Positions 2,930-63,123 of a DNA stretch of 64,000 nucleotides are shown one piece after another (positions within the stretch are counted from its first letter, which is position 1; each line of letters begins with the position of its first letter). The stretch covers positions 1-64,000 of the IMG/VR virus record IMGVR_UViG_3300038705_000018. One strand, given 5' to 3'. The position numbers and the translations under genes are program-made. This DNA comes from a virus. The notes under the pieces were generated by a model. It was not told the DNA's origin and did not search any database. It saw only the letters and a list, made by a program, of their open reading frames with translations.

Positions 2930-3054
2930 TCTTTCGATAAATTTGTTGAAAAAATATAAACTTTTCTTCGGTATACTGTTGCGAATATTGTATGTAGATG
3001 TTACATTTTACTCAAAGGTATACTTATTCGGAGTTTTATGGAGGAATGTCGAAA

Positions 3055-3885
3055 ATGACTAGACAAGCAACTACATACGTAATCGGTAACTTTAAAGGCG
3101 GAGTTGGAAAAACAAAAACAGCTACAATGTTAGCTTATGAAGCAGCTACTGTATTTAACGAAAAATGTCTATTAGTGGATATGGACCCTCAGGGTAATGC
3201 TACAAGAGTCCTTGCTAAAACAGGAGACATTGAACAAATAGACAAGTCTATTACAGATGGATTTCTAAATCAGAATTTAGAGAATGAGATTATCCCAGTT
3301 ATCGAGAATTTGGATATCATTCCATCTAATACTTCATTTAGAAAGCTTTCGAAAATCCTCTTCGATATGTTCCCAGAGGATGAACTTGCACAAATTACAT
3401 ATTTAAAGAAGTTACTAGCACCATTAAAAGATAAATATGATCGTATCTACATTGATGTACCACCAACAATCAGTGACTACTCAGATAACGCTATGATAGC
3501 AGCTGATTATTGTATCATCGTTTTACAAACACAAGAGTTATCTTTAGAAGGTGCTCAAACATATATCGCTTATATGCAGTTCTTAGCAGAAACATATGAT
3601 GCAGACCTACAAGTTTTAGGGATTATTCCAATGATGTTACATCAAGGAAAACGAGTGGATAATAAAGTACTACAACAAGCTCAGGAAATGTATGGCGGAA
3701 ACGTTTTAGATACCATTGTGAGATATCAAGAGCGCCTAAAAGTTTACGATATTGAAGGCATTCATAAAAACGTTAACGTTAGCGGTAATATTGATATGTG
3801 GGATGAAAAAGCTCATCAACTATTCATCGATGTTCTAAGCGAACTAAATGAACATGAAAATTATTTTGCTACTATTAATGCTTAA
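3055..3885 (+). CDS. parA: ParA/Soj-family partition ATPase
   Basis: Deviant Walker A (VIGNFKGGVGKTKTA), DMDPQGN and IDVPP motifs. Start moved to the Met with GGAGG 10 nt upstream. Confidence 0.9.
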   Translation: MTRQATTYVIGNFKGGVGKTKTATMLAYEAATVFNEKCLLVDMDPQGNATRVLAKTGDIEQIDKSITDGFLNQNLENEIIPVIENLDIIPSNTSFRKLSKILFDMFPEDELAQITYLKKLLAPLKDKYDRIYIDVPPTISDYSDNAMIAADYCIIVLQTQELSLEGAQTYIAYMQFLAETYDADLQVLGIIPMMLHQGKRVDNKVLQQAQEMYGGNVLDTIVRYQERLKVYDIEGIHKNVNVSGNIDMWDEKAHQLFIDVLSELNEHENYFATINA

Positions 3886-4301: not shown

Positions 4302-4377
4302 ACAACAAATACAATTTTCCTAGTCTATAGAATAATTCTTAGCATTTTCAATCCTAATGTTAATGGAGATGAATTTC

Positions 4378-5343
4378 ATGGGAGTAATTACGAAAAATGG
4401 CGATAATATAATTAATTTCGATTTATTTATAGAAGAGTACGGTTGCATAAAAGTTGAATTTAAGCAAAAAGAAGGGGAAAGGTACTATTTATATGCTTTT
4501 CGTAACGATTTATCTGAGTGGGATTTTAATAAAGGCGAATTAATTTTAGTGACCCACAATGAAGATAAAGTTAAAGAGATCTCCTCAAAAGTGCTAACTT
4601 TATATGTAGGTGAATTCTTTTGTAAAGAGTGTTTTAGAAAAAAAGATATTGAAAAATTATCTAAGAAAGATAATACGAAATATTGGTGTCATAATTTTTG
4701 GAAACAAACCCCGAATCATACTAAAAAATTACTACAAGATGAAATTTTATATTCAATAGATGATATGGATTGGTCTATGGTAAAAAGTATAACTAATAAT
4801 GATAAATCTTTTGTATTCTTTGGAATATGTTCAGATTTTTGCATGACTCGTGAAGAATTCAAAAATAATGATGTAATACAAGAAAAAATAAAGTTGATGG
4901 ACGACATATGGGAAGAACTAATAACAGATGAATTAATGAATGGCCCTGAAAGTTTATTAGAAGATATATTATGCGACCATATATTCATCATTGAAGAAGG
5001 TATGTCTTTTATAGAAAGACAATATAGAGTTGAAAATGGGATTATTGATATTATAGCGAAGGATGAAAATGGCACTAAATGTATTATTGAATTGAAGACG
5101 GTTGATGATGATAAAAGTTTAGTGTGGCAATCTGCTTATTACCCATCCTGTTTCAATGAAGATGTTCGTATGATTACAATTGCTCCCAATTATTCTACTC
5201 GAATATATAACGCTCTTAAAAATATAAACAATGTTGAAATGAAAGTTTTCGGAAAAGGTCCAAACGGGAAACTCGATATAAAAGAATTTGATCCAGGAGA
5301 ATCTGTTTCGGAAATAACAGAGGAATTGCCAATTATCGTGTGA
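4378..5343 (+). CDS. Protein with C-terminal NucS/DUF91-like PD-(D/E)xK nuclease domain
   Basis: C-terminal ...IEEGMSFIERQYRVENGIIDIIAKDENGTKCIIELKT...WQSAYY matches the E..G.ID....D....ELK pattern of RecB-fold NucS-type nucleases. GGAGA RBS before the MGVITK start. Confidence 0.6.
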   Translation: MGVITKNGDNIINFDLFIEEYGCIKVEFKQKEGERYYLYAFRNDLSEWDFNKGELILVTHNEDKVKEISSKVLTLYVGEFFCKECFRKKDIEKLSKKDNTKYWCHNFWKQTPNHTKKLLQDEILYSIDDMDWSMVKSITNNDKSFVFFGICSDFCMTREEFKNNDVIQEKIKLMDDIWEELITDELMNGPESLLEDILCDHIFIIEEGMSFIERQYRVENGIIDIIAKDENGTKCIIELKTVDDDKSLVWQSAYYPSCFNEDVRMITIAPNYSTRIYNALKNINNVEMKVFGKGPNGKLDIKEFDPGESVSEITEELPIIV

Positions 5344-44957: not shown

Positions 44958-45113
44958 TTATCCCATTCCTGTCCCTGGGTCCATTCTAAGCATAATTTGA
45001 GTTTGAGCATCCTTTGCTACTTGTTTAGGCTGCTCCTTTTGACCTTTAACAGGAGATACATATAATACTCCGACTAAAGCCAAAGTTGTTACTAAAGCTA
45101 GTACTTTTTTCAT
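44958..45113 (-). CDS. Secreted signalling propeptide (AimP/Phr-like), 51 aa
   Basis: Not in the track. Its ATG overlaps the receptor TGA (ATGA). MKKVLALVTTLALVGVLYVSPVKGQKEQPKQVAKDAQTQIMLRMDPGTGMG: signal peptide, then polar pro-region, then a short C-terminal peptide. Confidence 0.65.
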   Translation of the reverse strand: MKKVLALVTTLALVGVLYVSPVKGQKEQPKQVAKDAQTQIMLRMDPGTGMG

Positions 45114-46312
45114 TTAGCATCACCCTTGTATATTATACTATTTTTATTAATATCTACCAATATTTTTCGAGGTAAATAACTATAAAATTTACACCCTTGC
45201 GAGTAGAATAACTCAATTGATTTTTCTAGTAATTTTCTATCTTCCAATGCCATTCCTAAATAACATAATTTCATTGGAGACAGACTACCATTCTCTTTTT
45301 CGTACTTTCTTAATATAGTGGCAGCTTTTTCTTTTTGTCCTGTTACTATATATAGAAGCGCTTTCTCGCCCACATCAAAAATTTGTAAATCATACATATC
45401 CTTTTGATGGATTATTCTAATGTAAGACCTCATATTTAAAAACTCTTTTTTTCGGTTTTCTGCTTTCTCATAGGATAGTTGGTCTAGCATCTCAATCCCT
45501 TTATTTAAATACCATAAAGATTGTTCATAATTTTCAACGTATGATTCACCTAAATATCCTAATGCAGAAATTTTTAATAACCTTAGATAACCTAATTCAT
45601 CATTAACATTCAATATACTATGGCATAGTTCTCTTGATTTTTCTATTTGCTCGTCCATTAGCAATGCATACGCATACCATTCCTTTACACGGCTACTGTA
45701 TATATCTTTTATAAATTGGCTAGGAAGTTCAGATATTTTTTCCTGTAATGTTTGTATATACCCATCTAAAAGTTTAAAATTCCTACAATCATACATAGAA
45801 TATAATGTTAAAATATCAAACATTATTTTAGTTTCTTCATTTTTAAGAACTTTACTCTTTTTCCTACTCTCAGTCTCCGTTAAAAGTTTTTCAGCTGTAA
45901 AAAATTTCTTAGCTCTTAACCAAACGAGTTCATATATATATGCCCATTCGTAAGTTTTAGAGTTATTAGATTCAAAGCCTCTTTGAATCGCAATTCTAAG
46001 GAGTTCCAAATCCCCTAAAGCATTTCCATACTCCATAGCTATTCTTAAATTCTTTTTACTTTTAGTTTTTTTACAAAATTCATGGATCATATAATTCTTT
46101 TCAAGCGGATCTTCATATAATAATTCAACTAACTTTACTACATTTAAAAAATTCAATTCACTTTTCCCTGATAAATTCTTTGAAAACGCAGGGCCACTTA
46201 TTCCAAGTTCTTTTGAAATACTCTCTTGGCTCTTTTTTTGAAAATCAATTTGATCAACAACTTTAAATAACCAATATTTCATTTTGCTCCTCCTTGCCGG
46301 AACAAAAGACAC
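45110..46312 (-). CDS. RRNPP-family receptor (HTH + TPR), AimR-like
   Basis: N-terminal HTH (ISKELGISGPAFSKNLSGK). 400 aa with a helical-repeat body rich in Y/L/E. Translationally coupled propeptide gene. Located next to the phage lysogeny switch. Confidence 0.65.
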   Translation of the reverse strand: MSFVPARRSKMKYWLFKVVDQIDFQKKSQESISKELGISGPAFSKNLSGKSELNFLNVVKLVELLYEDPLEKNYMIHEFCKKTKSKKNLRIAMEYGNALGDLELLRIAIQRGFESNNSKTYEWAYIYELVWLRAKKFFTAEKLLTETESRKKSKVLKNEETKIMFDILTLYSMYDCRNFKLLDGYIQTLQEKISELPSQFIKDIYSSRVKEWYAYALLMDEQIEKSRELCHSILNVNDELGYLRLLKISALGYLGESYVENYEQSLWYLNKGIEMLDQLSYEKAENRKKEFLNMRSYIRIIHQKDMYDLQIFDVGEKALLYIVTGQKEKAATILRKYEKENGSLSPMKLCYLGMALEDRKLLEKSIELFYSQGCKFYSYLPRKILVDINKNSIIYKGDAK

Positions 46313-46455: not shown

Positions 46456-46760
46456 CGTCCGTTTATTTTATTATTTTCATAATATCATATTTTTGCCAAA
46501 ATTCAGTCGTGTGGTTATCAGAAAAATGTTGAGAAAGTTTGAAAATAGCTGTATATCAAGGTTTTCTTACGCTTTATTGAAAGGATATGCAATAGTGCAT
46601 CTTTCTGTATGAAGTACCTATATACATATTTTACTGTATTAACCATGAGAGATACCGCTCTCTTTTTTTATTTACTCTTTTTAAACTAGAACCTTTTTAT
46701 ACAACCTTCATAATATATATGGGACAACCTTAAACTCTTTTTTGAGAGGAATGATTAGAT

Positions 46761-47222
46761 ATGGCAGATTATTTCTGTAAAGATGGAAAGAAATATTACA
46801 AGAAAAAAGAAAAATCATGTAACTCTTCAAACTCCAATAACTGTTTCATAGAGACATTTACAATTTTCGGCTCTGAAACTACCCCTACAAGTCTTGAAAT
46901 TCCACCCGGTTCTACAATTACCCTATTTGAAAATTTTACAACTAATCACAATAAAACTCTAATTCGCTTTAGTTTTAGCCCTGTATTTGCTGCGTTTGTT
47001 ACATTGACTATTAGAACATTTAATTCTACAACTCCACAAACAATTACATTAACACCAGGAGATAGAAAAACTTTCTTATTTGAGGATGTTCAAAGTATTA
47101 CTTTCTCAAATGCCACTACAGCTAACGCTGAACTTAGTCCATTATTTATCCAACAAACAACATGTATTTGTTGTGGTGAATCAAATTCATATTACTATGA
47201 GAGTAGTGATTATGGTTATTAG
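46761..47222 (+). CDS. Cys-flanked beta-rich small protein (possible DUF3992/Ena-like)
   Basis: GAGAGGAA RBS. N-terminal Cys residues (C6, C20, C28), a Thr/Ser/Phe-rich beta-type core, and C-terminal CICC. Own terminator at 47233..47256. Confidence 0.5.
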   Translation: MADYFCKDGKKYYKKKEKSCNSSNSNNCFIETFTIFGSETTPTSLEIPPGSTITLFENFTTNHNKTLIRFSFSPVFAAFVTLTIRTFNSTTPQTITLTPGDRKTFLFEDVQSITFSNATTANAELSPLFIQQTTCICCGESNSYYYESSDYGY

Positions 47223-47430
47223 TAGTTATTATAGAGGGCTTCGGCTCTCTTTTTTTATGTATGTTCTGAAACTGGATTTACATACAGGTGTCCTTAATGG
47301 AGAGAGTTACAAAGGGGAAACTTCATTTTCTCTATAACTGAGGTATTGTTGATTTATGCTATTATAATTTTATAATTATTTTTTTCATTTGATTCATAGT
47401 TAAAACTGAAACTGTCTTGGGGGATTAAAC

Positions 47431-49128
47431 ATGTATATAGACACGATTGAAATAAGCAATTTTAGATCGATTGGAAGCAGCCCACCACTAAAACTAGATA
47501 TTAGTGATATTACCGTTCTGTCAGGAATTAATGATACAGGTAAAACTTCAGCCTTATTAGCCTCATTTATTGGTTTGAATAATGTTTCAACAAAAAATCA
47601 AGAATTATATAAATTATTGGATGGAAGTAAACATCGTAAAGGCTATGCTTTAGACGAATCCGCACAAGCTATTAAGCCTACTTTCAAATGTACGGAAGAA
47701 GATGTAGAAAAAGTATGGGAATACATACAACATAAGGGAATTTTGAAATATATCTTGCAAGAATTAAGGAAAGAAGAGATTAATATTGAGGAAGATACGG
47801 TTAAAGAATTTATTTCAGAAGCTGTAATCACACTAAAAATCCCACTGGATAGTCGACGATTCTCCTTTTACGATAGTTGTGTTGATCTTGTACTTTGGAA
47901 TAAATGTGTTGAGAACTTCTTTAAATACGAAAATATTTTAGAATTGTCAAACTATTTACATCGAGCAATTAATACTGCTGCTGCATTAGAGACATCTATA
48001 AACAACATGAATTGTTTATATGTTCCGGGTGTTACAAGAAGTAATGATCAAATTTTATTCAGAGAAAAAGATCGAAAATCGCAATTAATAGCCTTTTTCA
48101 AAGGGATTTGTTCGGAACAAGGGAAAACTTCCGGGAAATACGACGCTTTTAAGGAATATTTTAAAATTTTACTCCCTGAATTGGTAAGGTTTGAAATAAA
48201 TATTGTTCAAGATAATGAAGAATCTGAGGATATATTTTTAACTTGGAACCATAATGACTGTGAAAAAGAACAACCATTATCCCGAAGTGGTGATGGAATC
48301 TATAATACTATATTTCTTATGGCCAAGGTGCTAAATAATTTTAATGCAATGAATATTGTATTTATTGATGAACCTGAAATAGGATTACATCCATTGCTAC
48401 AGCAAAGATTTATTAAGTTGCTTAGAAAACTTTCTCGTGAATACTCAATAAAATGGGTGTTAGCAACGCATTCTCCCTTTATATTACAGTCTTTAAAAGA
48501 TACAGAGAAACTATATTTAATTAAGCATGATGGTCACCAAACAAATTGTCTGGAAATTGATATCGCTAATAAAGATGTTGTTTTTAGTACTTTAGGTGCT
48601 TATTTGCCTTTAGCTCTTTCTGCCACAGGTGTAATATTTGTTGAGGGACAAACTGAGGCGACCGTTTTAACCATACTATTAGCTAAAGTTGGTTTAAACA
48701 TAGAAAGGGAACGAATAATAATTATCCCTCTTGGTGGTGAAAATCTCTTTCAGATTTCTGCAAAAGATTTAAAAAAATTACATGAAAAAAGTATGGTCAT
48801 TATAGATAGTGATTTATCTAAACCTGAAAAAGAAGGAGGAAATATAAAAAAAATAAAATTAGATTATCAAGCTGAATGTGAAGAAAATAATGTTGAATTC
48901 TTAATGATTAAGGACTATAGAACATTAGAAAATATGTATCCAAAGGATGTTTTAGCGGAAGTTTTAGGTAAAGAAGTTGAAACTCTTGATTATGGAAACT
49001 TTGATGAGGTACCTGGAATTCGTAATAAAATCAAGGTAGGGGAAGAAGTCGCAAATAAAATGTCTAAAGAAGAAGCTGAGCGTTTTCCTTTGATTAAAGA
49101 AATACAAAAATGGTGGAATGAGAAATAA
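47431..49128 (+). CDS. OLD-family nuclease (ABC-type ATPase + TOPRIM)
   Basis: SNFRSIG...LSGINDTGKTS (Walker A), VFIDEPEIGLHP (Walker B), LATHSPF. C-terminal TOPRIM: VIFVEGQTEATVL and MVIIDSD. Confidence 0.85.
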   Translation: MYIDTIEISNFRSIGSSPPLKLDISDITVLSGINDTGKTSALLASFIGLNNVSTKNQELYKLLDGSKHRKGYALDESAQAIKPTFKCTEEDVEKVWEYIQHKGILKYILQELRKEEINIEEDTVKEFISEAVITLKIPLDSRRFSFYDSCVDLVLWNKCVENFFKYENILELSNYLHRAINTAAALETSINNMNCLYVPGVTRSNDQILFREKDRKSQLIAFFKGICSEQGKTSGKYDAFKEYFKILLPELVRFEINIVQDNEESEDIFLTWNHNDCEKEQPLSRSGDGIYNTIFLMAKVLNNFNAMNIVFIDEPEIGLHPLLQQRFIKLLRKLSREYSIKWVLATHSPFILQSLKDTEKLYLIKHDGHQTNCLEIDIANKDVVFSTLGAYLPLALSATGVIFVEGQTEATVLTILLAKVGLNIERERIIIIPLGGENLFQISAKDLKKLHEKSMVIIDSDLSKPEKEGGNIKKIKLDYQAECEENNVEFLMIKDYRTLENMYPKDVLAEVLGKEVETLDYGNFDEVPGIRNKIKVGEEVANKMSKEEAERFPLIKEIQKWWNEK

Positions 49129-49130
49129 TA

Positions 49131-49209
49131 TTTGGATGGGAGTCCAATACATATTATTAAAATTAAAGTGGTTCAAGTCGCAGGAAGGCACCTTAGGGTG
49201 TCTTTTTTT
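49131..49209 (+). repeat. REP-T copy 3, long form
   Basis: TTTGGATGGGAGTCCAATACATATTATTAAAATTAAAGTGGTTCAAGTCGCAGGAAGGCACCTTAGGGTGTC plus a T-run, starting 3 nt after the OLD stop. Confidence 0.85.
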
Positions 49210-49403
49210 ATGATTTAACACAATCATAATCACATTTTGAGGTACTTCTTGTTTTTAGACCTATCATTTTACCTTCCTTTATAAGTCCTATTTTAGTGCT
49301 GAATTTTAAAATATAAATTCATTTTCAATAACTTTATTTCTACAGGTAATATATAATTTGAATATTGATACATTAAAAACAATATAAAAAGGAGTGTATA
49401 TCG

Positions 49404-50702
49404 TTGGAATCATTAAGACGATTTGCTAAGGCTGCATTATATTACTGTAATAGGAATAACAAATGGGATGTAGATATGCATAGTGATAAGCCCTTGAAAA
49501 CTTTATTAGAAAAAATATATGAACACCCTAGATTTAGTGCTATTTTTGAAGTTGAAATAGCAGAAAGTATAATTAATTCGTATCTCGAAGATATACACAT
49601 ACAACAGCAAACAAACTATGGTGATCAAGATGCAGATCAATTTTTAGAATATATATATGAAAATCTTTATATAAATATCAAAGAAAGATGGATCATTTTC
49701 CCTTTAAAAGGAGCATTTCTTTCAAAAACAGTAAAGTATAAAGATTTTATTTTCATTTCAGGGGATAGAAATGAAAAATTAAATACATTAAAAAAAATAT
49801 TTAAAGTGTCATTGAATGAAACGAAAACAAGAATGCAGCATATTGAGAGAAAATCATCTTCTTTTTTACAACATCCATTAGTAGCTATTAGAGTAAAACA
49901 TCAATATAGTTATGTTTTTTATAGGGCAAGACATATAGGACTTTATACAAATTCTATTTTACATGCTATATACTGGGGGAATGTGTATCCTAAATACAAA
50001 TTACCTCTTTTCAGTAATATACATCAAAATGAACATATTAATATTCTCTTAACATGTGGTACTACAGAATATGAATTCAACAACGCACCGCTTAATTTTA
50101 ATGCAAATTGTTTTATAAACTTAGACTGGCTCCTAGAAAAGAAATATATAAAGTTATTGGATCTAATATATCAAGAAATGGTTATGAAAACTCATAACCC
50201 GGTCTCCCAAAAATTTTTGAACGGTATAAATTTTTTTAAAAGAGCTATAGAGGTTGAAAATAGTAATGATATAACTCAAGGATTAGGAACACCTTTATTG
50301 TTGTTAACAATTGCTAGTGAAAATATTCTATTAAAACATAAAGATTCTAAGCGAGACAGATTACGTGTATTATTCCCTTGTTTGGTTAATTGGGATGTCA
50401 TGGATAAGAATGAATTTAGTTCATTAATAAGTCAAATTTATACTTGGAGATCAGAATTTGTACATGCGGGGATAGAGCTGTATAAGGATTATAATGAAGA
50501 TTTTTCATCAGGACCTAACACAAAACAATATATAAATTTTAAAGTAGCGGTATCAAAATTATTATGTAGATCTCCTTATTTCATAAGGCTAGTTAACAAT
50601 CGTTTTGTTAAACAGGATTCAATAAGACATATTGATCTATGGAATACATATTTAGATAATCATTGGAACAGAGGTAAGAGTTTATTAAATAAGGTGGAAT
50701 AG
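49404..50702 (+). CDS. Protein with C-terminal Rx4H (HEPN-like) motif
   Basis: TTG start with AGGAG 8 nt upstream. SQIYTWRSEFVHAG (R at 50448, H at 50463) resembles ApeA/Abi-type HEPN RNase motifs. No NTPase motifs. Confidence 0.5.
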   Translation: MESLRRFAKAALYYCNRNNKWDVDMHSDKPLKTLLEKIYEHPRFSAIFEVEIAESIINSYLEDIHIQQQTNYGDQDADQFLEYIYENLYINIKERWIIFPLKGAFLSKTVKYKDFIFISGDRNEKLNTLKKIFKVSLNETKTRMQHIERKSSSFLQHPLVAIRVKHQYSYVFYRARHIGLYTNSILHAIYWGNVYPKYKLPLFSNIHQNEHINILLTCGTTEYEFNNAPLNFNANCFINLDWLLEKKYIKLLDLIYQEMVMKTHNPVSQKFLNGINFFKRAIEVENSNDITQGLGTPLLLLTIASENILLKHKDSKRDRLRVLFPCLVNWDVMDKNEFSSLISQIYTWRSEFVHAGIELYKDYNEDFSSGPNTKQYINFKVAVSKLLCRSPYFIRLVNNRFVKQDSIRHIDLWNTYLDNHWNRGKSLLNKVE

Positions 50703-50946
50703 AAATAATTTATAATAAGTATAAAATCATATTAGAGACGGTCTATATACTCTTTTAAATTAACGGTTTTCTGTTGAGGGTGGCGCGGTGAACCCTATCA
50801 TACGTAAATGGGGTTTTATTAGCTTTAAGTAATCTTTAAATAATTAATTTTATGAGCCATCTTTGGGATTTGGCATTCCTCCAATGTATCATAGTCTATA
50901 CTAGATGATGGAATAAGTTCGTTATGATTAATATTTAACTAAAGAG

Positions 50947-50973
50947 AAAAGCTCTCTAATTGAGAGCTTTTTT
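50947..50973. terminator. Bidirectional terminator
   Basis: AAAAGCTCTC-TAAT-TGAGAGCTTTT between the convergent 49404..50702 and 51050..51922 genes. Confidence 0.75.
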
Positions 50974-51049
50974 AGATAAATGGCTTTAATACAAACCATC
51001 TTTTTATTATTTATGTATGCACATAAAATGAACATACATTAAAATACAA

Positions 51050-51922
51050 CTATTCGAAAATTTGTAAGTTTATTAAATCATCAGGTCCCTCTAATTGAGG
51101 TTCTTGAGCGTAATTTGAGCGCTCTAAAACCATATTTCTTACTAAGAAATATAATTCTTTATAAGTGATTGCACTTTGGCTTCCCATCACGTCAGTTAAT
51201 GCTTTAGTAAAACGGCCATATGTACCTTCATCATATGATACTTGATCTGCTTTACATCCTGCTAATAAAATATGATTCGGTCCTGAAAAAGATGAAAAGT
51301 CTTTTCTAATAGGTTCAAAACCACTCATAATCATTTTTATGTCTTGAATGGTTTGGGTTGGAGGAATGTAACGAGGTTTAATACTTGATAAATCTCTTCT
51401 TTCAACGTTATTAAAACTATTAATTATTGCTTTTACATCCTCAATAGTTCGCGCTTGCGGAATAGAATAATAATTACCAAAGTTCCTTGTACCAGTTCCA
51501 GAATGACAACTATCCAAAATAACCACAAATTTTACACCTTTAGGTATGTTAGATAGTATTGTATTAATTTCATCATCTCTAATAAGATTAGATTGGTCAG
51601 CAAGTGCATCGATGGGTACAATAGCTTCATCCAACATATCTTCCTCATCAATTGGTGGCAAATCCGCTGTCTGTGTTCCGTGTCCCGAGTATGTAAATAA
51701 TCCAATATCCCCAGGTTCTAGTTGATTAACTAGCCATTCCAGTCCTTTGAGAATATTTTTTTTAGTCGCTACTTCCTCAATAAGTAATTGTATATTAGAC
51801 TGATTAAAATCAAATTTTTTAACTAGCGTATTTAAGATCATTGATGCATCGTTTATACAGCCCCCTAACTCATATTTACTGCCTCGATAATTTATACCTG
51901 TAATTAACGCTAATTTCTTCAC
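51050..51922 (-). CDS. Peptidase C14 (metacaspase/orthocaspase-like)
   Basis: ALITGINYRGSKYELGGCINDA, FTYSGHGTQ (catalytic His81) and VVILDSCHSGTG (catalytic Cys139). GTG start with a GGAGGAG RBS. Confidence 0.88.
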   Translation of the reverse strand: MKKLALITGINYRGSKYELGGCINDASMILNTLVKKFDFNQSNIQLLIEEVATKKNILKGLEWLVNQLEPGDIGLFTYSGHGTQTADLPPIDEEDMLDEAIVPIDALADQSNLIRDDEINTILSNIPKGVKFVVILDSCHSGTGTRNFGNYYSIPQARTIEDVKAIINSFNNVERRDLSSIKPRYIPPTQTIQDIKMIMSGFEPIRKDFSSFSGPNHILLAGCKADQVSYDEGTYGRFTKALTDVMGSQSAITYKELYFLVRNMVLERSNYAQEPQLEGPDDLINLQIFE

Positions 51923-52079
51923 TTTACTCCTCCTATTACTAATTTATAAAGTGGACAGAAAATCATTTCTGTCCACTTATAAAAAAACACTTAAATTATA
52001 TCTATAGAGCTTCTATAGACATCCAACTATTTGTAGCTTATTCTTCGATTACAATTGCCTTACTCTGAACTTAACATCA

Positions 52080-52304
52080 TCAAAAAAGTTTAATATTAGC
52101 ATCAATAATCTCCCCAGCGGTTGTTCCAATTGCCGCTCCTACAGGTCCACCAATTACACCACCAATTGCACCAGTAATTGGTGCCGTAGGAATACTTTCA
52201 GTACCTGGAATACCAAAAAAACGTGCCTGAGTTTGTAGGTCACCTTCAACTAAAAGTAACCCTTTTCCATTGATACTTAGTTTTCCAACAACTCTTCCAT
52301 TCAT
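52080..52304 (-). CDS. 74-aa glycine-zipper protein
   Basis: AAGGAGGTGAAAG RBS. C-terminal half is ITGAIGGVIGGPVGAAIGTTAG (GxxxG zipper). 157 nt upstream of the caspase gene on the same strand. Confidence 0.6.
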   Translation of the reverse strand: MNGRVVGKLSINGKGLLLVEGDLQTQARFFGIPGTESIPTAPITGAIGGVIGGPVGAAIGTTAGEIIDANIKLF

Positions 52305-52650
52305 CTTCTTTCACCTCCTTCCACAACAGTATTTACAATTTAATTTAACTAATACATTTTTTTACTATTTTGTTATTTTTAAATAATTATAAATTTTCTT
52401 TATAAGAATAATTGGATGATATAAGGTTATTCTGATAGATTAAATTCTTTATATACATATAATTTTAAAATAATATATATTGATTAATAGTTAATAATAT
52501 TTAATCTAAAAATCTAATCATATATTAACTGATTAAACATTGACTACATTGATGAGTTCTATAAAGAACCCTTTAAAAAGGTATTCAGTCCATTTTTAAC
52601 ATGATTGAATAAAGAATTTAATATGAAAACAGTAACAAAAGAAAAATGGG

Positions 52651-52690
52651 ATTTACAAGTTGAAGAAAACCACCTTAAGGTGTCTTTATT
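52651..52690 (+). repeat. REP-T copy 4, degenerate
   Basis: ATTTACAAGTTGAAGAAAACCACCTTAAGGTGTCTTTATT. Confidence 0.5.
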
Positions 52691-52697
52691 ATTACTC

Positions 52698-52767
52698 TTC
52701 GACATAATATGACGAAATAGGTTTAACCAATTCTGTTATGATGATTCGGAAATCTTACATTGTTTTA
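52698..52767 (+). promoter_or_regulatory. Conserved promoter leader L1 (TTCGACATAATATGACGAA box + TACATT)
   Basis: About 85% identical by eye to 61154..61222. The box is a 16/19 palindrome. Confidence 0.55.
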
Positions 52768-52892
52768 AGTGGTAAGTCCTCAACCATAAAAGAAAGAAGT
52801 GATAGTTACGGATAATTCAACCTCTTCGAATAAGAATTCTGGTTTATCGGATAATCAAATGTATATAAATAGTTACTAAAGGGGATGGGGAT

Positions 52893-53390
52893 TTGAAGCA
52901 GAAGCTGATTGTTATAATATGTAGTTTAATTTTAATCCCTCTTGTGATTATGGGATGGAATAAGTATTTAGATTACAAATATGAAAAGGAACGAGAAAAA
53001 GTCCATGCCGACTACGAAAAAGAACTAGTAGAACTGGAAAAGGAACAAACCAAACAGCTAGCGAAAGAAGAAAAAAGACTAGAAGAGCTAGAAGAACAGA
53101 ATCGTAATGCAGAAGCTAAGCAGAAACGTATGACTGACGCTTTCAACAGCTTACGCCAAGGTATGTCCTACGAAGAAGTTGCAGCAGCGTTCGGTACAGA
53201 AGGTGATTTAAAAAACCAAGGTACCTATAGTAATGAATGGAAAGACTATAAAAAAAATCACCCTGCGTATTTTTGGAATTATGACAGCATCTACAATATA
53301 GTTTGTAATTTTAGCTATAACAAACTAACGTCATGTAAGAAACAAGAACGTGTTCGAGTAAAAGTGAATGGAACTTGGTATGAAAATTAA
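52893..53390 (+). CDS. Membrane-anchored coiled-coil protein with DUF3862-like C-terminus
   Basis: TTG start with a GGGGATGGGGA RBS. N-terminal TM segment, EKE-rich coil, then GMSYEEVAAAFGTEGDL. Confidence 0.6.
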   Translation: MKQKLIVIICSLILIPLVIMGWNKYLDYKYEKEREKVHADYEKELVELEKEQTKQLAKEEKRLEELEEQNRNAEAKQKRMTDAFNSLRQGMSYEEVAAAFGTEGDLKNQGTYSNEWKDYKKNHPAYFWNYDSIYNIVCNFSYNKLTSCKKQERVRVKVNGTWYEN

Positions 53391-53660
53391 ACTCATCTAG
53401 TTCTTGATGGGTTTTCCTTTTATAAAAATGGCCATCAGCAAAGGCTACAATTTGCTAAACGACCAGCGTTGTATGTAAACGTGCTGCGTAACAACAAAGA
53501 TATATTGTGATTTGATTTCATCATTTTTACAAAAAGCCTTCAATTTAGATTGAGGGCTTTTTATAGTTATGGTGTAAAGATAATAGAAGGAAAATACAAT
53601 ATTTCCGTTCATAATAATAAGTATATTTTTATGAATTCCATAATTCAGGAAATAGAAAGG

Positions 53661-54245
53661 CTAATTTTTGGGTGTTCTCTTTTCCTTGTATATCGTGATA
53701 ATTGTATCTACTATAACAAATGTAAGTAGTGCTTCAGCAGAAATTTCAATAAGGCTTTTGATAAAAGCAGAATCATAGTGATAACTGCGATATGAATTAT
53801 AGTTTCTAATTATATATAAGATAAGTAACATTGCATAAGTTATCATCCTAAAATTTAATCGTTCAAAAGTCTTATTATACTTCTCCACTAAATCCCTTGT
53901 ATATGCAGTGTTATTAGCTAATAAAAACCACCTAATGGAATACTTTACTATTAGGGGGAAGTAAGCAAATGTAATTGAAAAACCGACTGAATACACATAC
54001 AAATATTGAGGGGTAATAGACCATGTAAGGAATCCTATAATAATTAAAGTTACTATCAAAATAAATACGGATACAAACAAGGCATGATTTAGAAACTTCA
54101 TTAGTCCTACAAAGAAGTTAACCAAATGTATAAGTGGTTTCGGTATTTCTTCTACCCCCTTATCCTTATAAATATACAACCCTAATAATAAAGCTACAAA
54201 TAATGTAATTATGAGTCCTATTGGTACTATAAAAATCCAATTCAT
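53661..54245 (-). CDS. Multi-pass membrane protein
   Basis: GGAGG RBS before MNWIFIVPIG. At least 5 hydrophobic segments. Confidence 0.6.
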   Translation of the reverse strand: MNWIFIVPIGLIITLFVALLLGLYIYKDKGVEEIPKPLIHLVNFFVGLMKFLNHALFVSVFILIVTLIIIGFLTWSITPQYLYVYSVGFSITFAYFPLIVKYSIRWFLLANNTAYTRDLVEKYNKTFERLNFRMITYAMLLILYIIRNYNSYRSYHYDSAFIKSLIEISAEALLTFVIVDTIITIYKEKRTPKN

Positions 54246-54579
54246 ATTTAAGCCTCCTTTATTTTTAATATAATACATTGAATCTACAAATCCCTCTCTG
54301 GAATATATAAGATTCTAGATAATATTTTATTATATACGAATATAACTATAAAGATAAAAGAATGAATTAATGAAACTAATGTTAATCCTTTTATATTCTA
54401 AAAGGTACATCTTTCGAGACACACTCCTTCCTAGCCATATTAAAACCACATCTCCCGATAGATTTGACAAAAACCATTACTCAATATTAGTAAAAAATAG
54501 AGGATATTTCTCTATTATCCATCGGTAAATTCTTATCATTTTCCCATTGAGAGTCATGACTCTCTCTTTTTTATTTCCA

Positions 54580-54646
54580 TTCGACATAATATGACAATAT
54601 AATAATGTTTGTTTTGATAAGATTGTCCAGAAATATTACATTTTAT
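54580..54646 (+). promoter_or_regulatory. Conserved promoter leader L2
   Basis: TTCGACATAATATGAC box, then TTGATA-17 nt-TACATT. Preceded by terminator GAGAGTCATGACTCTC plus a T-run. Confidence 0.55.
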
Positions 54647-54667
54647 ATATCTTGGAGGAATTCAATT

Positions 54668-55306
54668 ATGAGCAAAAAATTATTAATGGCTTTAGCATGC
54701 AGCGTGTTACTTATGGGATTGGCTGCTTGTGGTTCAAATGATAAAGCAAGTACATCAGAAGAACCAAAACAAGAAACTAAAAAAGAAGATGAGCAAAAAC
54801 AGGAAGAGGAACAAAAGAAAATAGAAGAACAGAAAAAAGCCGAAGAACAAAAACAAGCTGAGGAACAAAAGAAGTTAGAAGAACAGAAAAAAGCCGAAGA
54901 ACAAAAACAAGCTGAAGAGCAACAGAAGTTAGAAGAACAGAAAAAGGCTGAAGAACAAAAAGCTGAAGAAAAAGCTAAACAAGAAGAGCAGCAACGTCAA
55001 GAAGCTGAGGCGCAACGACAGGCTGAAGAAAAAACGAAGCAAGAACAACAACGTCAAAAGCAGGAACAAGTGCAAAAACAAAGAGAAGTAAATCAAAAGA
55101 AGACAGAGAAAGAAGCACGTGAGGAACAAGAAAGTTTAGAATATGCAAAAAGGAGAGCTCAATCATTTGAGGATAAAGAACGAGAAAAAATGAGTTGTGA
55201 TGAAGCGAAAAATGTTCTTGAACAATTAAAGAATGGCGAACAGAATCCAGCAACAAAAGAGCATATTATTAAGTATCAAGAAAAAGTAAATATGTGTAGC
55301 AAGTAA
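54668..55306 (+). CDS. Lipoprotein with EQKK-rich repeats
   Basis: GGAGGA RBS and lipobox LAACG. 54-nt tandem repeats encode EEQKKAEEQKQAEEQKKL. Confidence 0.8.
   Translation: MSKKLLMALACSVLLMGLAACGSNDKASTSEEPKQETKKEDEQKQEEEQKKIEEQKKAEEQKQAEEQKKLEEQKKAEEQKQAEEQQKLEEQKKAEEQKAEEKAKQEEQQRQEAEAQRQAEEKTKQEQQRQKQEQVQKQREVNQKKTEKEAREEQESLEYAKRRAQSFEDKEREKMSCDEAKNVLEQLKNGEQNPATKEHIIKYQEKVNMCSK
54824..54965 (+). repeat. 54-bp tandem repeat, about 2.6 copies, in-frame
   Basis: Units start at 54824, 54878 and 54932. Confidence 0.85.
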
Positions 55307-55334
55307 CAAAATAACTTAAAATAGTAAAACACCA

Positions 55335-55414
55335 TTTGGATGAGAGTCCAATACATATCATTAAAATTAAAGTGGTTCAAGTCGGAGAAAGGCACCTTAG
55401 GGTGTCTTTTCTTT
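55335..55414 (+). repeat. REP-T copy 5, long form
   Basis: TTTGGATGAGAGTCCAATACATATCATTAAAATTAAAGTGGTTCAAGTCGGAGAAAGGCACCTTAGGGTGTCTTTTCTTT. Confidence 0.85.
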
Positions 55415-55610
55415 ATGTATAAAATAGCCCGACTATTTCCGTAGATGTGCTAAATAGTAACCCCTATTACCATTTATTTAAATATCTCCAAGTCAATATT
55501 ATATAATTTCGATATATTTAAATTATATTTTAATTATATAAGTAGTGCAAAAGACGTTAGGCTTTGTTATCATGTTCTACGAATTAAAATTATTTCAAGG
55601 AGGTTTTTTT

Positions 55611-56373: not shown

Positions 56374-56416
56374 GTGGTTCAAGTCAGAGGGAGGCACCTT
56401 TAGGTGTCTTTTCTTT
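56374..56416 (+). repeat. REP-T copy 6, short form
   Basis: GTGGTTCAAGTCAGAGGGAGGCACCTTTAGGTGTCTTTTCTTTT. Preceded by hairpin CAGACCG-AACCGT-CCGGTCTG. Confidence 0.75.
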
Positions 56417-56575
56417 TGTACATTATATCCATTACGTGCTCATTGATTTTTTATGCACGTTTGATATAATTATTGTAATAGTATTACAGTAATACCTTGT
56501 GTATATAATAAAAAGAAGAGATGCGCTAACATCTCTTCAAGTAACTGCTACCGCAAGGTGGTCGGTTGCTTAAAC

Positions 56576-57005: not shown

Positions 57006-57070
57006 CGTTTAAATAAAGAGGTGTACTAAATTTCTCAATGTACAATATTACTTAACGTGGTAAAATAATA

Positions 57071-57153
57071 GTTGGATTGGCGTCCAATACATATTATTAA
57101 AACTAAGATGATTCAAGTCGGAGGAAGGCACCTTAGGGTGTCTTTTCTTTTTT
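57071..57153 (+). repeat. REP-T copy 7, long form
   Basis: GTTGGATTGGCGTCCAATACATATTATTAAAACTAAGATGATTCAAGTCGGAGGAAGGCACCTTAGGGTGTCTTTTC. Not directly 3' of any CDS. Confidence 0.85.
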
Positions 57154-57408
57154 ATTATCCTATTATAACGGGTTAGTCATAGCGTTATGATATTTTTGGT
57201 GTAGATCCATTCCTATCAATTAAATTTGAAAAATATAACTGTCTTTTATTTAAAGGACATATATTATAAGAAATGTGATTATAAGTTTCATAATTAAAAT
57301 TATGAAACTTATAAAAAAAACGAAAAATTGTGTTATAGTAATATAAGTATAGGTATTGGCCTCCAGGCAAAGTGAATGCAAATATTATCTTTGTGGAGGT
57401 ATTTTAGT

Positions 57409-59582: not shown

Positions 59583-59993
59583 AACAAAAATTATAAAATT
59601 AACGAACTATGTCTGTTCTGTAAATTGAAACTTCAGTTTGTAGAGGATTTTATCCAAGATAAGAGAGATTGGCTAGAATCCTAAAAAATCTAAGTCAGAA
59701 AACAGATGATACTTTATAGAAAATTGCGATTAGGGAAGGCCGTATGATTGTTCAGGGGGGCAAGAATGATTAAACGTATATTTCATAAATAAATTGTAGT
59801 TGTAGCTGATATAGATTTAGCTTATTTCGGAGGCGAAGATTATGTGGATTCACCATTCCCTTATGCCAATTATAGATATTCTAGTAAATATCTATAGTTT
59901 TTGAACATTATATATGTCCCCTTTCGATTAAGAACCTTTCTAAGATTAGGAAATAATTTGTACTATGCCAAAATAATAAATTATTATTTAAAA

Positions 59994-60041
59994 ATTAAAA
60001 TAGTTTTATTCGGAGGAAGACACCCTAAGGTGTCTTTTTTT
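59994..60041 (+). repeat. REP-T copy 8, variant
   Basis: ..TTATTCGGAGGAAGACACC-CTAA-GGTGTCT plus T7. The G-to-A change converts the G.U pair to A-U (compensatory-type change). Confidence 0.7.
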
Positions 60042-60244
60042 AAGACTGGACATCAACAGAGTCGTTTTGCTAAGCCACTAAGCTGGTTTTATTTTATGTG
60101 AAAATGCTACAAAAAAATAAAATATACTGTAATTTGATTTTTTTTCAGAAGAAAGCATTTCCATTTAATATAGATAAAATTATTGATTCACAACAAAAAG
60201 AATGCAAATACTTCACCTGCATTCTTTTTGTTTCATATACAGGA

Positions 60245-62202: not shown

Positions 62203-62904
62203 ATGAGGAAAGAATTTTTTTGGGGATTGCTGTTTACTACATGTCTGATATTTTCTGGTTGTTCAGCTAATATGAAATATGTAGAACATGAAACTAAGGA
62301 AAAATTAGAAAATAGTTCATTGGGACCATATATTGAAAAAGTCGATTATAAAGCTGATAAAAAGGAGGACGATACTACACCAGTAAATATTCAAGCGATC
62401 GTAGATGAGAAGTTCTCTGATTTGTCTACCATGGAAAAATATCAAATCATGTACACTACGCTCGATCAAATTATGGGTTCTTTTAATAATGTTTATTGTG
62501 GAGAGAATAGATCATGTCGTTACAAGGACCTTAAATTACTATACGATGACGATACATTTGTTATGGACATTTTTGATAAAACACTGGTTATTAACGAGTT
62601 CGAAAAATATTCAAAACGTGATTATGACATAGAACTAGCTAATAGCACTTATAAAGCCACCCCCAATAACGTATCTAAATACACATCGCAAAAGAAAGAG
62701 AAATTTGCTAGCAACGGAATGAACTACATGATTATATTTGATTTTATGAAAGAACAATACAGAATCCTCACAAACAATGACGAAAACTACATCCCCGAAG
62801 TACATGATCCTCGGGTAGCCGAAATAGCTGCTAAACGATTTGGAATTACAGCCAAAGAAGCTGGATTTATTTATGAAGAAGTGCAAATGGATGCTTTTAA
62901 GTAA
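62203..62904 (+). CDS. Lipoprotein of unknown function
   Basis: GGGGTGA RBS and lipobox IFSGC. Confidence 0.7.
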   Translation: MRKEFFWGLLFTTCLIFSGCSANMKYVEHETKEKLENSSLGPYIEKVDYKADKKEDDTTPVNIQAIVDEKFSDLSTMEKYQIMYTTLDQIMGSFNNVYCGENRSCRYKDLKLLYDDDTFVMDIFDKTLVINEFEKYSKRDYDIELANSTYKATPNNVSKYTSQKKEKFASNGMNYMIIFDFMKEQYRILTNNDENYIPEVHDPRVAEIAAKRFGITAKEAGFIYEEVQMDAFK

Positions 62905-62920
62905 AATATAGATTTTGTTC

Positions 62921-62980
62921 TAATACATATTATTAAAGTGGGTCAAGTCGGAGGAAGGCACCTTTGGGTGTCCTTTCTTT
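62921..62980 (+). repeat. REP-T copy 9 (fused to an ATAGATTTTGTTC box at 62908)
   Basis: TAATACATATTATTAAAGTGGGTCAAGTCGGAGGAAGGCACCTTTGGGTGTCCTTTCTTT. Confidence 0.8.
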
Positions 62981-63123
62981 ATAAAAAAGAACTCATAAAA
63001 CGCCTTAAATTATTAAATTTAAATATCATAATTTTATTATAAAATAATACATTAATATTAACACTAAAAATTTGTTATAATTAGTAAAGAATTCTATTAA
63101 TTAGATAGAGAGGATACAATATT

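Follow-up and report, generated by a model that had tools for sequence, protein, structure and literature searches.

An OLD-family nuclease gene and a candidate HEPN-family defence gene as neighbouring, separately exchanged cassettes in a probable Bacillus phage-plasmid

Introduction

Nucleases of the OLD family are sorted by genomic context into four classes: the gene stands alone (Class 1), is followed by a gene for a UvrD-like helicase (Class 2, Gabija), or belongs to a retron (Class 3) or to PARIS (Class 4) (PMC7049728, PMC10568477). The Class 1 enzyme Vc OLD of V. cholerae acts as a stand-alone defence and nicks DNA, for which its ATPase and its nuclease residues are both required (PMC12392090), so an OLD gene without a UvrD partner falls into a category that is already known. 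Here we describe an OLD gene and the gene next to it, which encodes a 432-amino-acid (aa) protein with a probable HEPN domain, in a viral DNA stretch of 64,000 nucleotides (nt) that comprises positions 1 to 64,000 of the IMG/VR record IMGVR_UViG_3300038705_000018 and is referred to below as the window.

HEPN domains are defined by a four-helix up-down core in which helix 3 closes with an Rx4-6H motif whose Arg is followed by a polar residue, and helix 2 carries a conserved acidic residue; inserts between helices 2 and 3 are frequent, and helix 4 is often kinked (PMC3710099). DARNA (PD-T7-3) and HepS are single-protein HEPN RNases that act as abortive-infection effectors by cleaving tRNA, and ApeA is likewise a single-protein HEPN anti-phage system. 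One of its representatives, Ec2ApeA, is activated by 5'-phosphorylated deoxydinucleotides.

Results

Two adjacent genes encode an OLD nuclease and a HEPN-family candidate

The two genes lie next to each other on the same strand and are separated by 275 nt. The features that define them are as follows.

47431–49128, + strand: OLD-family nuclease gene, 565 aa, ATG start; ABC-type ATPase at residues 1 to about 390, TOPRIM domain at about 398–475
49404–50702, + strand: gene of the 432-aa protein, TTG start, from the list of open reading frames (ORFs)
49388–49394, + strand: AAAGGAG, ribosome-binding site of the 432-aa gene, 9 nt before its TTG

Homologs of the 432-aa protein align from its residue 1, which supports the TTG start. 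An initial annotation of this DNA, made from the sequence alone, had placed both ORFs at these positions, had noted a good ribosome-binding site before the TTG and had credited the first product with ABC-ATPase motifs, a TOPRIM Glu and a DxD and the second with no NTPase or helicase motif. These descriptions held throughout: the 432-aa protein had no match at E ≤ 0.1 in four hidden Markov model (HMM) libraries (Pfam, PADLOC, NCBIfam and PHROGs), and no NTPase or helicase domain was found in it with them. Of two alternatives, two separate defences or an OLD–HEPN pair, it had leaned towards separate transcription units. Judging by how the genes are built, by their motifs and conservation, by their independent assortment and by their setting in defence islands, we regard it as likely that two unrelated single-gene defence cassettes stand side by side here, a Class 1 OLD and a HEPN-family candidate, with ApeA-like abortive infection as the most likely mode of action of the latter.

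The 565-aa protein is a Class 1 OLD nuclease

Pfam assigned residues 1–351 of the 565-aa protein to AAA_15 (4.9e-24) and residues 398–461 to OLD-like_TOPRIM (1e-9, above the cutoff), and the motif search located the expected sites.

47524–47547, + strand: Walker A motif GINDTGKT, residues 32–39
48355–48378, + strand: Walker B and D-loop IVFIDEPE, residues 309–316
48640–48657, + strand: TOPRIM catalytic Glu motif VEGQTE, residues 404–409
48805–48813, + strand: TOPRIM DxD motif (DSD), residues 459–461

A signature-like LSRSG begins at residue 283 and an H-loop ATHS at residue 345. PADLOC, which had been recommended in the initial annotation, recognised only this one of the two proteins, with AriA (covering the ATPase part alone), Old and many GajA models (1e-15 to 1e-22) as the best models. 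The only PDB match that spanned the TOPRIM region was the Class 1 OLD of Thermus scotoductus (TsOLD, 6P74), and it was weak (phmmer E = 2e-4).

No UvrD or other helicase domain was found within or adjoining the OLD cassette, nor beside the genes of identical OLD proteins in other strains. The ORFs neighbouring OLD held no reverse transcriptase domain, Rfam gave no match between 46 and 64 kb, and no AriB-like neighbour was seen, the TOPRIM domain being fused to the ATPase. Because helicase, reverse transcriptase and AriB-like neighbours are lacking and the TOPRIM and ATPase form one chain, the 565-aa protein is a Class 1 OLD, and the earlier description of it as an OLD without a UvrD partner corresponds to this established class. 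The other classes were considered in turn and rejected. For Gabija, no GajB or UvrD gene adjoins, and a control GajA/GajB pair was recognised in a Paenibacillus paeoniae locus (L011). For PARIS, the TOPRIM is not split off and the AriA match is limited to the ATPase, and for retrons there is neither a reverse transcriptase domain nearby nor an Rfam match.

The characterised Class 1 OLDs (P2 Old, TsOLD, Vc OLD and E. coli YbjD) are likewise single genes without a helicase or retron partner, and P2 old and the window gene both occupy a variable cargo hotspot of a temperate phage beside the lysogeny module. Their similarity to the window protein is nevertheless low, as the value for 6P74 illustrates, and its phage homologs are at most 30% identical. 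A review places Class 1 OLDs away from other defence genes, whereas the window OLD is flanked by candidate defence genes. Gabija GajA has the ATPase–TOPRIM architecture in common with the window OLD, but the GajA of L011 (731 aa) is just 23% identical to it.

The 432-aa family has three invariant residues and a HEPN-like C-terminal domain

An exhaustive HMMER scan of 1.84 billion representatives yielded 143 clusters of homologs (50% identity) at E ≤ 1e-3, 63 of them at E ≤ 1e-30, and most homologs were 410–450 aa long. This count supersedes that of a word-indexed protein search, which gave just 8–9 clusters and had suggested a tiny family. When 78 full-length members were aligned (mean column identity 27%), E306, R349 and H354 were the only invariant columns. 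The family motif reads Y-x-x-R-[SN]-[DEN]-[FY]-V-H-x-G, with four residues between Arg and His in all 78 members; the window protein has ...YTWRSEFVHAG... around R349 and H354. The residue after the motif Arg is Ser in 35 members, Asn in 35, Gly in 5 and Cys in 3. By chance, a protein of such composition would contain about 0.7 Rx4H motifs, and the evidence therefore lies in the invariance across 78 divergent homologs and not in the presence of the motif.

An AlphaFold2 model built from the 78-sequence alignment reached a predicted local distance difference test (pLDDT) score of 95.4 and a predicted template modelling (pTM) score of 0.93. It replaced an earlier run with 9 sequences in which the C-terminal domain, at pLDDT 30–50, was unusable. 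The model and the alignment divide the gene as follows.

49404–50186, + strand: N-terminal region, residues 1–261, a helical segment and a mixed alpha/beta segment (AlphaFold2 model)
50187–50702, + strand: C-terminal all-helical domain, predicted HEPN type, residues 262–432, and stop codon (AlphaFold2 model, profile matches)
50319–50321, + strand: codon of Glu306 in predicted HEPN core helix 2 (295–309), invariant in all 78 members; matched to the Glu of Ec2ApeA IAIESLI
50448–50465, + strand: codons of R349-S-E-F-V-H354 (Rx4H) at the end of helix 3 (335–355), 78 of 78; align with Ec2ApeA R502 and H507

The helices of the C-terminal domain comprise residues 266–286, 295–309, 316–327, 335–355, 371–388/390–403 and 409–423. 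In secondary structure, order of elements and conserved residues, model and alignment together agree with each point of the HEPN definition given above, including a helix inserted between helices 2 and 3 and a kink in helix 4. Residues 1–261 have no detectable homolog outside the family (no PDB profile match; nothing significant by Foldseek in PDB or BFVD) and are presumed to form a sensor or regulatory part. A near-invariant His in this region (71 of 78 members) is Ile in the window protein, at residue 211–214 or thereabouts (about nt 50034–50045). Members of the B. cereus subgroup instead carry a His three positions before it; a shifted alignment, or a change of the putative sensor domain specific to this lineage, could account for the difference.

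When the profile of the C-terminal domain was compared with PDB, the top four matches were all ApeA (E = 3.6e-4, 4.7e-4, 4.9e-4 and 2.2e-3), and the next match followed at E = 1.5. By protein, Ec2ApeA (9HXB/9HXD) scored best at E = 3.6e-4 and Ec3ApeA reached E = 2.2e-3. The ApeA match consists of two collinear segments that set the conserved Glu on IAIESLI and R349/H354 on R502/H507, and Ec2ApeA R502A is a published catalytic mutant. Pfam searches with 28 family C-terminal domains returned HEPN_Apea for 5 (best 4e-5) and HEPN_RiboL-PSP for 4 (best 5.9e-4), and three of the four commonest Pfam matches of the members are HEPN families; PF13643 (DUF4145) is a HEPN family (PMC3710099). RefSeq labels plasmid-borne homologs with 26–29% identity 'HEPN domain-containing protein'. 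These results indicate that the C-terminal domain is probably a HEPN domain, closest to the ApeA clade, and the HEPN-like character that the initial annotation had read from the Rx4H motif is supported by the invariant triad, the topology, the ApeA-only PDB matches and the leading Pfam families.

Several observations weigh against this assignment. The Lys or Arg at +4 of the Ex3[KR] form of the definition is not conserved in the family. Pfam finds no HEPN domain in the window protein, nor in two of the homologs that RefSeq labels HEPN. Full-length Foldseek against PDB and BFVD returned nothing significant, to HEPN or ApeA structures either. A hhalign comparison with a shallow four-sequence alignment of Bacillales ApeA recovered the motif helix only, at a probability of 16–24%. 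Together with the modest best sequence E-values (3.6e-4 to 4e-5), the Foldseek and hhalign outcomes would suit a non-HEPN helical domain, for example one for nucleotide binding or regulation, in which the conserved E...Rx4H resembles ApeA by convergence or chance. We consider this unlikely: the significant PDB matches are all to ApeA HEPN domains, run collinearly over two segments and put invariant residues on experimentally validated catalytic ones, the commonest Pfam matches point the same way, and the predicted topology agrees with the definition point by point.

The family is distinct from ApeA, DARNA, HepS and HepT

The 432-aa family and ApeA have the positions of the Glu and the Rx4H in common, and both are found beside restriction–modification (R-M) systems. 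ApeA proteins, at about 590–620 aa, consist of N-terminal, Mid and split HEPN domains, whereas the 432-aa protein is about 160 residues shorter, its HEPN domain of about 170 aa is without the insertion of about 70 residues (ApeA 400–472) that is part of the split ApeA HEPN, and in its N-terminal 260 residues no resemblance to the ApeA N or Mid domains was detected. The PADLOC ApeA model PDLC02157 matched 0 of 78 family members at E ≤ 0.01 and, as a control, 4 of 4 Bacillales plasmid ApeA proteins at 6e-11 to 7e-5. Because of this difference from the controls, the shorter length, the missing insertion and the unrelated N-terminal region, the family was not assigned to ApeA itself. Genuine ApeA homologs of about 592 aa with PADLOC ApeA matches occur on Bacillus, Cytobacillus and Planococcus plasmids (L025–L028), and each is followed, directly or after one gene, by an xerS tyrosine recombinase gene.

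In DARNA an N-terminal HEPN domain (R117x4H122) precedes a C-terminal helical domain that binds single-stranded DNA, whereas the HEPN domain of the 432-aa protein is C-terminal. The PADLOC models of DARNA and HepS found no match in the 432-aa family, and HepS (9OIJ) ranked 38th in the Foldseek comparison with the 432-aa model (E = 2.6). A DARNA assignment was rejected on domain order and PADLOC, a HepS assignment on PADLOC and the Foldseek value. A toxin–antitoxin system of the HepT/MntA type was also rejected, as no conserved small ORF or MNT gene was found next to the family gene, in the window or at other loci.

Family members stand without a fixed partner in defence islands

A locus search with the 9-sequence family alignment gave 4 loci, and about 13 independent loci of the family were compared in all. 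Type I R-M genes stand beside the family member together with an Stk2 kinase in L012 (372–9335) and with YgjP and SIR2 in L032/L033 (1–9347). The neighbours in L004 are Mrr, GmrSD, a resolvase and an integrase; L020 is an integrase and AEP primase element with a resolvase, HNH and PDC-S06; L030/L031 have a PLD-family nuclease. Toxin–antitoxin pairs occur in L021, L023 and the P0015 locus, the last of which also carries a pEK499_p136 HEPN protein and Mrr. In L011 (3815–9332) a 443-aa family member lies 122 nt beyond a complete Gabija system (GajA of 731 aa, GajB of 639 aa), and in the window OLD lies on one side of the 432-aa gene and a caspase-like protease on the other. This pattern is that of a stand-alone gene in defence islands with no fixed partner. 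In L012 and L032/L033, which are unrelated genomes, the HEPN-family gene comes last after a type I R-M operon and one extra effector (the Stk2 kinase, or YgjP with SIR2), an arrangement that recalls PrrC and ApeA embedded in R-M loci.

Two sets of loci count against a gene without partners. No terminator was detected between GajB and the HEPN-family gene of L011, which are 122 nt apart, and this is the sole locus at which the family gene may be co-transcribed with an OLD-family system. In the Paenibacillus/Pristimantibacillus loci L001, L003 and L005 (8570–9906), two genes directly upstream, for proteins of 211 and 221 aa, are conserved and could be partners in that lineage. This gene pair is part of a long run of small genes without annotation that follows the gene of a WD40/RCC1 protein of about 1050 aa, and PADLOC had no matches in these three loci.

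The neighbourhoods also bear on the possibility that the 432-aa protein is the toxin of a toxin–antitoxin or addiction module that stabilises the plasmid-prophage, perhaps an RNase and yet not a phage-sensing defence. HEPN proteins are common toxins of such modules (PMC3710099), the element is probably an episomal phage-plasmid that would gain from addiction, and some family members adjoin toxin–antitoxin pairs. We judge this improbable, given that no MNT or other small antitoxin ORF adjoins or is conserved, that the large conserved N-terminal region is typical of self-regulated sensor-effectors, and that R-M and Gabija islands on chromosomes contain members as well.

A further possibility, which we rate as doubtful, is a new ApeA-like sensor-RNase whose N-terminal domain would detect small products of DNA breakdown, in the way that deoxydinucleotides activate Ec2ApeA, and thereby serve as a second-line alarm behind DNA-cutting defences. 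DNA-breakdown sensing would explain the frequent DNA-nuclease neighbours (OLD, Gabija, type I R-M, Mrr/GmrSD, HNH and PLD). Such a link to neighbouring defences would be facultative, would involve no specific partner and would be compatible with independent assortment.

OLD and the 432-aa gene are separate cassettes joined at a repeat

The features at the edges of the OLD cassette, and all copies of the repeat, are as follows.

49102–49231, + strand: copy of a dispersed repeat of about 90–110 nt with an intrinsic-terminator hairpin at 49182–49207 (repeat families D2–D4; terminator scan)
46761–47222, + strand: 153-aa gene with Cys-rich termini (phrog_26176, E = 4.5e-90), left part of the block that travels with OLD
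47233–47250, + strand: terminator-like hairpin after the 153-aa gene (terminator scan), left edge of the OLD cassette
206–263, 931–976, 49102–49231, 52651–52696, 55306–55435, 56375–56420, 57042–57171, 59991–60063 and 62872–63001: repeat copies in the window

Elsewhere in the B. cereus group, the gene of an identical OLD protein is followed by the gene of an HTH_17 protein (L015) or by DUF4429/SHOCT and YolD genes (L016), and the DNA homology of the window OLD block with these two loci ends at 49208–49210. An identical 432-aa protein is encoded in L006, where Excalibur and sortase genes stand upstream in place of OLD. L006 matches the window over 49134–55416 at 98.4% identity and again upstream over 46639–47256; from these blocks it follows that the OLD cassette (47257–49133) has been replaced there by a different cassette. 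The 153-aa gene precedes OLD in the window, L015, L016, L017 and L018 and is present without OLD in L006. Since the window ceases to match L006 at 47256, the hairpin after this gene defines where the OLD cassette has its left edge.

The homology blocks on the OLD side and on the 432-aa side overlap solely in the repeat at 49102–49231, and these sequence comparisons mark it as the recombination joint of the OLD and HEPN cassettes. About nine copies of the repeat occur in the window and further copies in L006. It ends in a GGCACC-TTAG-GGTGTC hairpin with a T-run, stands behind one gene cassette after another at the 3' end, and forms the breakpoint where cassettes differ from strain to strain. 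Its fold score is good (z = -4.5), and Rfam has no family for it. Many short-read contigs break at the repeat, and pieces of the cassette region, repeat included, match 265 Bacillus plasmids. The repeat may drive cassette shuffling by homologous recombination. A terminator-bearing repeat copy between the two genes had been reported in the initial annotation and was recovered. The plausible promoter reported from the same gap was not: no promoter-like site was found on the + strand, and the AT-rich region as a whole has 29 such sites against 24.9 expected in shuffles, no more than chance would give.

Because identical copies of each gene occur without the other, the two genes do not form a pair, and the data support OLD and the 432-aa gene as separate, independently shuffled single-gene cassettes. 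The pair reading would make them a two-gene system like Gabija or PARIS, with OLD as sensor or DNA nuclease and the HEPN RNase as effector. Adjacency on one strand in the window speaks for it, as does the P. paeoniae member that directly follows GajA/GajB with no detected terminator between. We nevertheless treat it as refuted and give it very little credence, as a terminator-bearing repeat separates the genes, an OLD-family neighbour is present at only 2 of about 13 independent loci (the window and L011), the OLDs at these two loci share 23% identity and belong to different classes, and the hotspot of plasmid pBTHD521-3 has an OLD homolog and no HEPN gene. The initial annotation had named two outcomes that would speak against it, want of a HEPN fold and want of co-occurrence with OLD genes; the co-occurrence is indeed wanting, and with it the pair falls, while sequence and topology argue for the fold. 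What stands of its alternatives is the separate one.

A caspase-like gene converges on the 432-aa gene

Downstream of the 432-aa gene, the window contains the following features.

51050–51922, − strand: caspase-like Peptidase_C14 protein (Pfam 6e-34; PADLOC 'caspase' 2.5e-19; weak NCBIfam 'caspase, EACC1-associated type')
52080–52304, − strand: 74-aa protein with the glycine-zipper segment GAIGGVIGGPVGAAIGTTAG, preceding the caspase-like gene
50947–50971, bidirectional: terminator-like hairpin common to the 432-aa gene and the convergent caspase-like gene (terminator scan)

The caspase-like and 74-aa genes may be a separate two-gene conflict system. That the 432-aa gene, the caspase-like protease and the glycine-zipper partner form one conflict system is highly improbable: the three genes stay together in L006–L009 with one bidirectional terminator in common, and the protease matches the PADLOC caspase model, but these loci are 98–100% identical DNA and hence not independent, no other family locus has a Peptidase_C14 neighbour, and the genes are convergent.

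The cassettes lie in a cargo hotspot of a probable phage-plasmid

The window is probably an episomal phage-plasmid (an arbitrium plasmid-prophage) of the Bacillus cereus group. A temperate-phage gene set occupies about 5.6–46.3 kb on the minus strand, and its last gene encodes the AimR arbitrium receptor.

45110–46312, − strand: AimR arbitrium receptor (NCBIfam 9e-110)
2998–3885, + strand: ParA-like ATPase, in the left flank
4357–5343, + strand: NucS-like gene, in the left flank

The two left-flank genes match many B. cereus-group plasmids of 52–76 kb, and no integrase was seen among the window ORFs scanned. Such 'plasmids' have been reclassified as phage-plasmids with parABS and arbitrium systems (PMC11526630). 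The AimR module lies within 1–4 kb upstream of identical OLD copies, even where the immunity region differs. In the circular, 71.8-kb pBTHD521-3 (L029), the order is AimR, an AAA/DUF4435 pair, the OLD homolog, and SHOCT and Excalibur cassettes. The AAA ATPase and DUF4435 pair of L029 (2898–7178) is on the opposite strand and adjoins the OLD homolog (about 84% DNA identity), so that two systems of ATPase/TOPRIM type are neighbours. OLD thus sits in a cargo hotspot beside the lysogeny switch that is reminiscent of the P2 old locus, at which, according to the OLD review, other defence systems are also found.

Discussion

We propose that the accessory region is built of cassettes that are bounded by the terminator-bearing repeat of about 90 nt and exchanged between strains. 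By homology, OLD would work without a helicase partner: its ABC-type ATPase would control a two-metal TOPRIM nuclease, and this would nick or degrade the DNA of invading phages. The C-terminal HEPN domain of the 432-aa protein would be a metal-independent RNase with E306, R349 and H354 in its active site, to which both subunits of a dimer would probably contribute, as they do in other HEPN enzymes. By analogy with ApeA, the protein would stay inactive as long as no infection is sensed by its N-terminal region or by an inter-domain pocket. Once triggered, the HEPN domain would cleave tRNA or other RNA, whereupon translation would stop and the infection would be aborted. RNase activity, dimerisation, trigger and anti-phage function of the 432-aa family are inferred.

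For OLD biology, the locus adds one further Class 1 member and gives an example of such a gene in a swap-in/swap-out defence hotspot of a Bacillus phage-plasmid, beside the arbitrium lysogeny switch. The 432-aa family is compact, widespread and uncatalogued, being missing from Pfam, NCBIfam, PHROGs and PADLOC, and is a moderately interesting defence candidate. If it is proven to be an anti-phage RNase, it would be a single-gene addition to defence catalogues, and the trigger of its new sensor domain could be set against those of ligand-activated ApeA and of DARNA, which is activated by single-stranded DNA. The exchange of repeat-bounded cassettes is a concrete case of phage-plasmids reshuffling their defence cargo.

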